Part shown: piece after piece, positions 36,304 through 50,581 of the stretch
Position numbering within the stretch: position 1 is the stretch's first letter
Layout: each line of letters opens with the position of its first letter
DNA from: Escherichia coli
GTDB taxonomy: Bacteria > Pseudomonadota > Gammaproteobacteria > Enterobacterales > Enterobacteriaceae
Reading direction: 5' to 3' (one strand)
Assembly (NCBI RefSeq): GCF_044324785.1
Contig: NZ_CP172127.1
Length of the DNA: 64,000 nt
Notes under the pieces: generated by a model
Seen by the model: the letters and a program-made list of their open reading frames with translations, nothing else
What the model was told of the DNA's origin: nothing
The model's database searches: none
Translations under genes and position numbers: made by a program

Positions 36304-36846
36304 TCACTGGTAAACCAGATCAAAATAGAGAACCGCCGTCGCATTACCGCCCGTTGCGCCCGCCTTTGTGGACTTATAGCGGAGTTGATATTTGAGTGTG
36401 TTATCCCCCGCTTTTAAGGGCGTAAGAGGCTGGACCTGATTGAGCGGGATTTCTTGCTGACTTTGCGCATCAAGAATTTGCACGGCAATCCCCGTTGCCA
36501 TACCACCGCCTCCGCCTGTGTCAGTTAGTTTGAGCAGTGTCGGCACAAGGGTGTCAGCCTCACCGCTAAAAAGGACGTCCGCGCCAGTAATACCAGCGGC
36601 ACAACCGGTGATATCGATATTCAAATCAGCAGCAGTGCTTACGGTATTCGCGGCCTGAAAATCACTGATATTAAAATCACCAATATGAATATTTTGTAAT
36701 GCACTTTTGGTGGCGACATCACAGCCCTGATCGACCACATTCCCATAAATATGCATACTAACTTGTTCAGGCCCAGCCATCCCGACATGGATGTTAAGAT
36801 TGCTAAAGAACAAGATAACGCACTGAAATATCGTTTTTTTCTTCAT
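36304..36846 (-). CDS. ycbU: Fimbrial-like subunit
   Basis: Track ORF 180 aa MKKKTIFQCVILFFSNLNIHVGMA... with signal peptide and pilin-like C-terminus. Confidence 0.82.
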   Translation of the reverse strand: MKKKTIFQCVILFFSNLNIHVGMAGPEQVSMHIYGNVVDQGCDVATKSALQNIHIGDFNISDFQAANTVSTAADLNIDITGCAAGITGADVLFSGEADTLVPTLLKLTDTGGGGGMATGIAVQILDAQSQQEIPLNQVQPLTPLKAGDNTLKYQLRYKSTKAGATGGNATAVLYFDLVYQ

Positions 36847-46500: not shown

Positions 46501-49113
46501 TCAAGCCAGTGCTTTAGTTATCTTCTCGTACAGATCGCCAGAGAGATTTTCCAGCCCTTTCAACTGTTCCAGCGCCGCGCGCATTTTCTCCTGACGTTTG
46601 GCATCATATCGTTTCAGGCGAATCAGCGGCTCAATCAGGCGCGAAGCCACCTGCGGGTTACGGCTGTTGAGGTCGGTAAGCATTTCCACCAGGAACTGGT
46701 AACCGCTGCCATCTTCAGCATGGAACGCTGCCGGGTTGCTGCCCGCAAACGCGCCAATCAACGAACGAATACGGTTCGGGTTGCTCATGGTAAATGAGCG
46801 ATGCTGCAACAGACCGCGCACCGTCTCCAGAACATTCGCCGCCGGGCTGGTGGCTTGCAGGATAAACCATTTATCCATCACCAGACCATCCTGATGCCAC
46901 TTGTCGTCGTACTCCTGCATCAGCGCATCACGGCATGGCAACTGTGCAGCAACCGCCGCAGAAAGCGCCGCCAGCGCATCAGTCATATTGTTTGCTTCAT
47001 GGAACTGCTTGCTTACCAGCACGTCAGCCAGATGCGTTTCACCAAAAGCGAGGAAGCGCAGGCAGGCATTACGCAGAGTGCGTTTTGCAATATCTTCATG
47101 CTCAACACGGTACTCGCTCTGGTAATTCGCGTTGTAAATAGCCAGCAGCTCATCCGCCAGTTCAGTCGCCAGAGTACGGGTGAGTGCTTCGCGCACTTCG
47201 GCAATAGCAATCGGGTCGATGATATCGAACAGTTCCGCCATTTCATTGACGGAAGGCAGCGTCAGGATTTCTGCCGCCAGTGCCGGATCAATCTTCTCAT
47301 CAAGCAGCACTGCGCGGAAAGCGTCAGCCACATGCACCGGCAGAGACAGCGGCTGCCCTTGCTGATGACGGGCGACGTTGAGCTTGATGTAGGTTGCCAG
47401 CAGGCTTTGCGCCGCATCCCAGCGGGAGAAATCATTACGCGCATGGCGCATCAGGAAGGTCAGTTGCTGATCGCTCCACTTATATTCCAGTTTCACTGGC
47501 GCAGAGAATTCGCACAGCAGCGCAGGCACCGGCTGAAAGTAGACATTATCAAAGACAAAGGTCTGTTCCGCCTGGGTGACGTTCAGCACCGAATTCACCG
47601 GATGACCGCCTTTTTGCAACGGGATCACTTTGCCTTCGTTATCATACAATTCGATTGCAAACGGAATATGCAGCGGTTGTTTTTCTGCCTGATCCGGCGT
47701 AGCAGGCGTACGCTGGCTGATGGTCAGGGTGTACTGCTCGGTTTCTGGATTATAGTCGTCTTTGACGGTCACAACCGGCGTACCGGACTGGCTGTACCAA
47801 CGGCGGAAATGAGAGAGATCGACATTCGACGCATCTTCCATCGCCTGAACAAAGTCGTCGCAGGTTGCCGCGCTGCCATCATGGCGCTCGAAATAGAGCT
47901 GCATCCCTTTCTGGAAGTTTTCTTCGCCCAGCAGGGTGTGGATCATGCGAATCACTTCCGCGCCCTTCTCGTAAACGGTCAGGGTGTAGAAGTTGTTCAT
48001 CTCAATGACCATATCCGGGCGGATCGGGTGCGCCATCGGGCTGGCGTCTTCCGCAAACTGCAATCCGCGCATGGTGCGCACGTTGTTGATACGGTTTACC
48101 GCGCGAGAACCAAGGTCAGAGCTGAATTCCTGATCGCGGAACACGGTTAAACCTTCTTTCAGGCTGAGCTGGAACCAGTCGCGGCAGGTCACACGGTTAC
48201 CGGTCCAGTTGTGGAAATATTCGTGACCAATAACACGCTCAATATCGAGGTAATCTTTATCGGTGGCGGTGTCGGTACGGGCCAGCACATATTTGGAGTT
48301 AAAGATATTCAGACCCTTATTCTCCATTGCGCCCATATTAAAGAAGTCCACCGCGACGATCATATAGATGTCGAGGTCATACTCCAGGCCGAAGCGTTCT
48401 TCATCCCATTTCATGGAGTTTTTCAGCGAGGTCATCGCCCACGGCGCGCGGTCGAGGTTGCCGCGATCGACGTACAACTCCAGCGCCACTTCGCGACCAG
48501 AACGCGTGGTGAAGGTGTCGCGCAGCACGTCGAAGTCGCCTGCAACCAGCGCAAACAGGTAGCACGGTTTCGGGAACGGGTCCTGCCACTGTACCCAGTG
48601 ACGTCCGTTTTCCAGTTCGCCTTGCGCAACGCGGTTACCGTTGGAAAGCAGGAAGGGATATTTGGTTTTATCGGCAATAATTTTGGTGGTAAAACGCGCC
48701 AGCACGTCCGGGCGGTCAAGATAATACGTAATATGGCGGAAACCTTCGGCTTCACACTGAGTGCAAAGCGCATCGCCTGACTGATAAAGCCCTTCCAGCG
48801 CGGTATTCGTCGCCGGGCTAATTTCATTAACGATCTTAAGCGTAAAACGCTCCGGCAAATTACTGATGACCAGTGCGCCATCTTCTTCTTTCCAGGCGGT
48901 CCACGGCTCATCATTAATATGAACAGAAACCAGTTTAAGATCTTCGCCATCAAGACGAAGCGGAGCATCTGATGCACCATGACGGACAGCCTGGCTGACC
49001 GCGGTAACGACCGTCTTTTGCGCGTCCAGGTCAAAGGTCAAGTCAATATCAGTAATCTGGTAATCCGGCGCACGATAATCGTGACGGTATTTGGCTTGTG
49101 GCTGTTGAGTCAT
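46501..49113 (-). CDS. pepN: Aminopeptidase N (M1 zinc metallopeptidase)
   Basis: Track ORF 870 aa MTQQPQAKYRHDYRAPDYQITDIDLTFDLDAQKT...; GAMEN and HEYFHNWTG zinc-binding motifs. Confidence 0.96.
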   Translation of the reverse strand: MTQQPQAKYRHDYRAPDYQITDIDLTFDLDAQKTVVTAVSQAVRHGASDAPLRLDGEDLKLVSVHINDEPWTAWKEEDGALVISNLPERFTLKIVNEISPATNTALEGLYQSGDALCTQCEAEGFRHITYYLDRPDVLARFTTKIIADKTKYPFLLSNGNRVAQGELENGRHWVQWQDPFPKPCYLFALVAGDFDVLRDTFTTRSGREVALELYVDRGNLDRAPWAMTSLKNSMKWDEERFGLEYDLDIYMIVAVDFFNMGAMENKGLNIFNSKYVLARTDTATDKDYLDIERVIGHEYFHNWTGNRVTCRDWFQLSLKEGLTVFRDQEFSSDLGSRAVNRINNVRTMRGLQFAEDASPMAHPIRPDMVIEMNNFYTLTVYEKGAEVIRMIHTLLGEENFQKGMQLYFERHDGSAATCDDFVQAMEDASNVDLSHFRRWYSQSGTPVVTVKDDYNPETEQYTLTISQRTPATPDQAEKQPLHIPFAIELYDNEGKVIPLQKGGHPVNSVLNVTQAEQTFVFDNVYFQPVPALLCEFSAPVKLEYKWSDQQLTFLMRHARNDFSRWDAAQSLLATYIKLNVARHQQGQPLSLPVHVADAFRAVLLDEKIDPALAAEILTLPSVNEMAELFDIIDPIAIAEVREALTRTLATELADELLAIYNANYQSEYRVEHEDIAKRTLRNACLRFLAFGETHLADVLVSKQFHEANNMTDALAALSAAVAAQLPCRDALMQEYDDKWHQDGLVMDKWFILQATSPAANVLETVRGLLQHRSFTMSNPNRIRSLIGAFAGSNPAAFHAEDGSGYQFLVEMLTDLNSRNPQVASRLIEPLIRLKRYDAKRQEKMRAALEQLKGLENLSGDLYEKITKALA

Positions 49114-49331
49114 AAATAACCTTTAGCATCTTTTATAGAGTCTGGTGTTCAGTCTATTCCTGTTGCGTAAATCGCGCTATGCAGAATCTTCATCTTTTCA
49201 GGTACAAACGCCTTTATTGCTACATTTTTATAACATACACCGCGTAATGCCATCGACCAGAAAGGTGGCATATGGTGTGATCGGGGTTCAATAAATTGCG
49301 AAACAAGGTATACTCCAGCAGTTCCTGAAGA

Positions 49332-49348
49332 TGTTTATTGTACTAAAC
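49332..49348 (+). promoter_or_regulatory. Candidate NadR-type operator (NAD box) in the pncB leader
   Basis: Palindrome TGTTTA-ttgtac-TAAAC 30-47 bp upstream of the pncB ATG; half-sites match the TGTTTA/TAAACA motif I associate with NadR-repressed genes. Confidence 0.4.
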
Positions 49349-49378
49349 GCTCCTGTACGAGGACGCTACTGCGCACCT

Positions 49379-50581
49379 ATGACACAATTCGCTTCTCCTG
49401 TTCTGCACTCGTTGCTGGATACAGATGCTTATAAGTTGCATATGCAGCAAGCCGTGTTTCATCACTATTACGATGTGCATGTCGCGGCGGAGTTTCGTTG
49501 CCGAGGTGACGATCTGCTGGGTATTTATGCCGATGCTATTCGTGAACAGGTTCAGGCGATGCAGCACCTGCGCCTGCAGGATGATGAATATCAATGGCTC
49601 TCTGCCCTGCCTTTCTTTAAGGCCGACTATCTTAACTGGCTACGCGAGTTCCGCTTTAACCCGGAACAAGTCACCGTGTCCAACGATAATGGCAAGCTGG
49701 ATATTCGTTTAAGCGGCCCGTGGCGTGAAGTCATCCTCTGGGAAGTTCCTTTGCTGGCGGTTATCAGTGAAATGGTACATCGCTATCGCTCACCGCAGGC
49801 CGACGTTGCGCAAGCCCTCGACACGCTGGAAAGCAAATTAGCCGACTTCTCGGCATTAACCGCCGGTCTTGATATGTCGCGCTTCCATCTGATGGATTTT
49901 GGCACCCGCCGACGTTTTTCTCGTGAAGTACAAGAAACCATCGTGAAACGTCTGCAACAGGAATCCTGGTTCGTGGGCACCAGCAACTACGATCTGGCGC
50001 GTCGGCTTTCCCTCACGCCAATGGGAACACAAGCACACGAATGGTTCCAGGCGCATCAGCAAATCAGTCCGGATCTTGCCAACAGCCAGCGAGCTGCACT
50101 TGCTGCCTGGCTGGAAGAATACCCCGACCAACTTGGCATTGCATTAACCGACTGCATCACTATGGATGCTTTCCTGCGTGATTTCGGTGTCGAGTTCGCC
50201 AGCCGCTATCAGGGCTTGCGTCATGACTCCGGCGACCCAGTTGAATGGGGTGAAAAAGCCATTGCACATTATGAGAAGCTGGGAATTGATCCACAGAGTA
50301 AAACGCTGGTTTTCTCTGACAATCTGGATTTACGCAAAGCGGTTGAGCTATACCGCCATTTCTCTTCCCGTGTGCAATTAAGTTTTGGTATTGGGACTCG
50401 CCTGACCTGCGATATCCCCCAGGTAAAACCCCTGAATATTGTCATTAAGTTGGTTGAGTGTAACGGTAAACCGGTGGCGAAACTTTCTGACAGCCCTGGC
50501 AAAACTATCTGCCACGATAAAGCGTTTGTTCGGGCGCTGCGCAAAGCGTTCGACCTTCCGCATATTAAAAAAGCCAGTTAA
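49379..50581 (+). CDS. pncB: Nicotinate phosphoribosyltransferase
   Basis: Track ORF 49331..50581 trimmed to ATG 49379 ([33 protein letters not shown]...), 400 aa. Confidence 0.94.

Follow-up and report, generated by a model that had tools for sequence, protein, structure and literature searches.

The question raised by this locus is whether a short palindrome just upstream of pncB is an operator of the NAD-responsive repressor NadR, or whether the same bases are part of the coding sequence, act as RNA or are present by chance. We consider it very probable that 49332–49349 is the operator for NadR repression of pncB, occupied by the NAD-bound and released by the ATP-bound form of the repressor, and that it acts by promoter interference. 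This assignment draws partly on what is observed here, namely a motif match that is rare and conserved and a species that possesses the repressor, and partly on the literature, for the repression of pncB and the NAD-dependent binding of the consensus by NadR.

Of 5426 complete E. coli genomes, 5424 contain the 501 bases around the box with at least 95% identity. In the RefSeq annotation, pepN lies on the minus strand and pncB on the plus strand, and the 265-bp intergenic region between them (49114–49378) is identical to that of K-12 MG1655, in which the equivalent of the box occupies 990386..990403 on the minus strand. The gene downstream of the box is a true NAPRTase, its product matching the Pfam families NAPRTase_N (E = 2e-38) and NAPRTase (E = 6e-94), and 29 nt separate the end of the box from the annotated ATG. 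The features discussed below are collected in Table 1, with positions counted along the 64-kb stretch of E. coli chromosome that was analysed as a whole (the window).

Table 1. Features of the pncB upstream region and gene, with the basis of each assignment
Feature	Position	Strand	Basis
Weak -35-like element TTCAAT (3/6)	49287..49292	+	predicted; conserved block GTGTGATC..TTCAATAAA
Probable pncB -10 hexamer TATACT	49309..49314	+	predicted; inside invariant GGTATACTCC, 49307-49316
NadR operator (NAD box), TGTTTATTGTACTAAACG, very probable	49332..49349	.	motif, independent matrix, conservation
pncB leader, CTCCTGTACGAGGACGCTACTGCGCACCT	49350..49378	+	conserved in all 80 species, including 26 box-less
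pncB CDS, nicotinate phosphoribosyltransferase, 400 aa + stop	49379..50581	+	RefSeq, Pfam

The NAD box in the pepN–pncB intergenic region

The N-terminal HTH of NadR recognises a palindromic 18-bp operator, TGTTTA-N6-TAAACA (PMC2330245, PMC2330246), and the NadR dimer together with its co-repressor NAD binds this operator at the promoters of genes for de novo synthesis and for salvage (PMC2330246). The E. coli protein comprises an HTH_3 domain (residues 7–59), a cytidylyltransferase-like domain and an AAA_28 kinase domain, and its gene, which lies outside the window, is carried by 5424 of the 5426 complete genomes of the species. A search upstream of E. coli nadR itself returned no NAD box. 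The original prediction placed a palindrome, TGTTTA-N6-TAAAC, with half-sites of the NadR type at 49332–49348. The palindrome is present there as described (TGTTTATTGTACTAAAC), although the full unit of 18 bp reaches 49349. It agrees with TGTTTA-N6-TAAACA at 11 of 12 half-site bases, the sole mismatch being the final G in place of A, and its half-sites agree with the boxes upstream of nadA (TGTTTAGCATATAAAACA) and nadB (TGTTTAGTAAATTAAACA) of E. coli K-12 as well as with the published consensus. Comparison with these two upstream regions, which had been suggested as a check, revealed the same box architecture. A half-site spacing incompatible with NadR operators had been named beforehand as a reason to abandon the assignment; since the half-sites and their 6-bp spacing equal those of the published consensus, the operator survives.

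How much weight does such a match carry? The pncB box is the only match to TGTTTA-N6-TAAACA with at most one mismatch in the window. Nevertheless, shuffled windows contain on average 0.21 such matches per 64 kb and 20 out of 100 shuffles contain at least one, so that a single match in 64 kb is not striking by itself; by extrapolation, roughly 15 would occur in a whole E. coli genome. These figures are what speaks for a functionless A/T-rich palindrome that arose by chance. Within the 265-bp intergenic region, however, only about 1e-3 matches of this quality are expected by chance. A position weight matrix points in the same direction. It was trained on the E. coli nadA and nadB boxes and the published operator of Proteus mirabilis niaP, with pncB sites excluded, and is thus a small, symmetrised matrix of 3 sites that differs from the curated RegPrecise matrix. 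With this matrix the pncB box scores 17.7 bits and ranks first among the ~128,000 positions of the 64 kb, ahead of a runner-up at 13.1 bits. Scores of at least 17.7 bits are expected 0.075 times per 64 kb of Markov-1 random sequence, or ~3e-4 times per pepN–pncB intergenic region. The score is lower than those of the nadA and nadB boxes (17.7 versus 25.9–28.0 bits), both of which were training sites. Accordingly, a chance origin would demand an event with an expectation of about 3e-4 to 1e-3, and this in front of a gene that the literature names as NadR-repressed.

The second-best matrix position, at 36792, is inside an ORF and was dismissed, and the intergenic region holds no second NAD box at up to 3 mismatches. 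When the whole window is searched at this tolerance, 40 matches are found, compared with 23.7 +/- 4.9 in shuffled sequence, and no shuffle reaches 40. Most of these matches lie in coding sequence, and their excess is likely due to codon bias or local base composition and not to function.

The palindrome could also be the operator of some regulator other than NadR. The motif is common specifically to nadA, nadB and the published NadR consensus, which argues against this, and no other regulator of enterobacteria is known to recognise a TGTTTA-N6-TAAACA motif; we therefore regard it as extremely improbable.

Conservation of the box and the start codon of pncB

To follow the box beyond E. coli, pncB loci were collected from 80 Enterobacteriaceae species sharing 82–98% protein identity. 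In 54 of them, a one-mismatch box precedes the pncB ATG by 28 or 29 nt. Across the 31 distinct sequences representing these 54 species, identity is 100% at all 12 half-site positions and 96% in the spacer, whereas it is only 65% in the 17 nt between TATACT and the box. Within E. coli, the stretch from the -10 hexamer to the ATG (82 nt) is at least 99% identical, that is, without a single difference, in 5403 of 5425 genomes. A functionless palindrome would hardly stay invariant in 54 species while neighbouring bases diverge, and location and conservation together effectively refute chance, to which we assign a negligible probability.

Conservation could nevertheless have a different source if the box were translated. 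An ORF of 416 aa (49331..50581) shares the frame of pncB and begins with an ATG that extends over the first two positions of the box, so that 49332–49349 might encode the N-terminus of a longer PncB and be conserved through protein constraint. The original prediction had pointed out that this ORF covers the operator and that the 400-aa start avoids doing so, and the comparative data bear out its choice. RefSeq begins pncB at 49379, and the 16-codon extension is not conserved: the in-frame ATG at codon -16 is present in only about 5 of the 80 species, namely Escherichia and a few others. In 20 box-bearing species the leader is 1 nt shorter, and the box is therefore out of frame. Moreover, in-frame stops 2–13 codons upstream of pncB are common among the species compared, and the Pfam domain NAPRTase_N begins at residue 13 when PncB is counted from the RefSeq start. 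PncB is thus correctly read from 49379 as a protein of 400 aa, and the longest ORF gives a wrong start for pncB; a coding role of the box is scarcely conceivable.

The NadR operator is not universal. At the same place, 26 of the 80 species have TTGATGGAAACG, which is itself conserved; among them are Klebsiella, Raoultella, Trabulsiella, Atlantibacter, Franconibacter, Siccibacter, Mangrovibacter, Superficieibacter and Pseudescherichia. Given this replacement, pncB appears to be outside the NadR regulon in Klebsiella, Raoultella, Atlantibacter, Cronobacter-related genera and others, either through loss or because it never entered. Such a pattern agrees with the lineage-variable NadR regulon described previously. 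Indeed, comparative genomics defined nadA-pnuC as the conserved core of the regulon and found pncB to be regulated 'in several enterobacterial genomes', and the curated NadR regulog in its supplement, which spans 11 Enterobacterales genomes, counts pncB among the targets in 6 of them and pnuC in all 11.

Some box-less genomes carry related sequences further upstream. In Klebsiella, Raoultella and Trabulsiella, an insertion of roughly 60 nt separates the TTCAAT block from TATACT, and its 5' edge carries TGTTCAATATATTAAACT, 136–139 nt before the pncB ATG. With 2 mismatches to the NAD box, this sequence could be a weak NadR site that has moved, or the resemblance could be coincidental. In Enterobacter sp. 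Ag1, the proximal box is absent and a perfect TGTTTAGTACTCTAAACA is found 179 nt before the pncB ATG.

The leader between the box and the ATG displays a conservation of its own. Together with bases of the right half-site (49345–49381), it reads AAACGCTCCnGTGAGAGGAyGCTACTGCGCACC(T)ATG and is kept in 80 out of 80 species. The mismatched G at position 18 of the box is invariant, and the same G belongs to the leader that is conserved in the box-less species, so that conservation of the right half-site could in part have another cause. The leader contains an SD-like GAGG, which at 14–15 nt from the ATG is unusually far from it. An alignment fold of the leader yielded no covariation-supported structure, a search of 49100–49500 gave no Rfam match at E up to 10, and no literature support was found for a CsrA link of this GGA-containing leader. 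Conservation of the leader may reflect an ordinary constraint of translation initiation or a second regulatory element. Because the leader is conserved also in the 26 species without a NAD box, we entertain the idea that its ~33 nt form a second, NadR-independent cis-regulatory element of pncB, although we think this rather unlikely; such an element might, for instance, be bound by a protein or an sRNA in the vicinity of the GGA/SD motif. If it existed, the NadR box would have been gained or lost at its 5' edge in particular lineages.

Promoter context and mode of repression

The original prediction located the box between the likely promoter and the start codon. This is consistent with the -10-like TATACT found 17 nt upstream of the box, a 5/6 match to the -10 consensus within the ten bases GGTATACTCC that are invariant in a 24-genus alignment. 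The 17-nt distance is kept in 39 of the 54 box-bearing species. A weak -35-like TTCAAT precedes TATACT by 16 nt. A consensus sigma-70 scan of 49050–49450 called no promoter, because its thresholds exclude such a weak -35 element. In Klebsiella-type sequences, the insertion of roughly 60 nt mentioned above splits TTCAAT from TATACT and TATACT is retained, which speaks for TATACT as the -10 element. Literature searches yielded neither a mapped start of pncB transcription nor usable NadR ChIP-exo data. With TATACT as the -10 element, transcription would start near 49320–49321 and the box would lie at about +12 to +29.

The spacing between TATACT and the box varies in one group. In four Enterobacter-group species it is 7 nt instead of 17, corresponding to a 10-bp deletion or one helical turn, with the distance from box to ATG remaining 29 nt. 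The position of the operator is thus tied to the ATG, and not strictly to the -10 element. Further upstream, several blocks of the intergenic region are nearly invariant across genera, namely TGCTACATTTTTATAACA at 49218–49235, a GGCACGAAATGCC-like block at ~49240–49258 and GTGTGATC..TTCAATAAA at 49275–49295, the last containing a TGTGA that resembles a CRP half-site. For pncB, the divergent pepN or both, these blocks probably serve as promoter elements or as sites for regulators.

A transcription start near 49320 would also place the box in the pncB mRNA, where the palindrome might act as RNA rather than as a DNA operator, with a GUUUA-loop-UAAAC hairpin in the 5' UTR affecting mRNA stability or translation. 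An isolated segment of 26 nt can form a 6–8-bp A/U-rich hairpin, but this structure is weak (-2.6 kcal/mol, z = -1.5), with 14 of 200 shuffles folding at least as well, and it does not appear in the minimum-free-energy structure predicted for the leader as a whole, whose stability does not exceed that of shuffled sequence (z = 0.11). Furthermore, the Rfam search described above returned nothing for it, and the alignment fold (-2.1 kcal/mol) contains no compensatory changes; covariation is absent from the box because the half-sites never vary. The nadA and nadB boxes are placed differently with respect to their start codons, as would suit recognition of the motif by a protein that binds DNA. 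Taken together, a role of the palindrome as RNA is very unlikely.

For the NadR operator, the available data suggest the following scheme. According to a 2025 study, nadB, nadA, pnuC and pncB are repressed by NadR, the EMSAs covering the nadB and nadA-pnuC promoters only; at low NAD, ATP frees NadR from DNA, and at high NAD, the dinucleotide is bound by the adenylyltransferase domain. NadR is trifunctional, combining the N-terminal HTH with NMN adenylyltransferase and ribosylnicotinamide kinase. When NAD is plentiful, NAD-bound NadR (a dimer according to PMC2330246) would occupy the half-sites TGTTTA and TAAACG upstream of pncB; when NAD is low, ATP-bound NadR would leave the DNA and pncB would be transcribed. 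Because the box is located 17 nt downstream of the probable -10 element, at about +12 to +29, bound NadR would be expected to reach into the downstream part of the region covered by RNA polymerase. The repressor could then block open-complex formation or promoter escape, or represent a promoter-proximal roadblock. We infer interference of this kind, including the repression by occlusion put forward originally.

Relation to known operators

The pncB box is almost certainly a NadR site that has already been described, which makes the original prediction correct but ordinary. A TAAACAA inverted repeat common to the Salmonella pncB and nadA promoter regions was reportedly noted by Vinitsky et al. 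in 1991 (J Bacteriol 173:536), and Penfound and Foster are said to have shown binding of NadR to NAD boxes in 1999. The pncB site is reportedly also listed by Gerasimova and Gelfand in 2005, in RegPrecise and in RegulonDB/EcoCyc. We see no substantive difference between the site of the literature and 49332–49349; they are the same element. The link between NadR and pncB, by which nicotinate salvage is shut off when NAD is replete, is established biology. The significance of the present result lies mainly in annotation quality; it also confirms that a reading of the sequence alone can recover a textbook operator.

The closest relatives of the pncB box are the NAD boxes of nadA-pnuC and nadB in E. 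coli and Salmonella, which share its 18-bp TGTTTA-N6-TAAACA architecture and its repressor. The nadA, nadB and pncB boxes are also alike in having an A/T-rich spacer with a central TA/GTAC-like core and in being located in the promoter or leader of a gene for NAD supply. The pncB box differs from the other two in the G at position 18, the T at position 7 and the lower score. Their placement differs as well: with promoter positions predicted throughout, the pncB box lies downstream of the probable -10 element, whereas the nadA box overlaps a -10-like TATAAA. The main nadB box has no mismatch and stops 6 nt short of the ATG, compared with 29 nt for pncB. Upstream of K-12 nadB there are two boxes (1323–1340 and 1397–1414 of the retrieved locus), 74 bp apart from centre to centre, the upstream one being weaker with 2 mismatches; the pncB intergenic region has one box at up to 3 mismatches.

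Outside the NadR regulon, the arrangement resembles that of lacO1, a promoter-proximal downstream operator centred at +11. In both cases, a repressor dimer on a palindrome just past the transcription start, which for pncB is a predicted one, would hinder initiation or escape. The two systems differ in regulator family and in ligand logic, NadR using NAD as co-repressor and ATP as the ligand that releases it from DNA.
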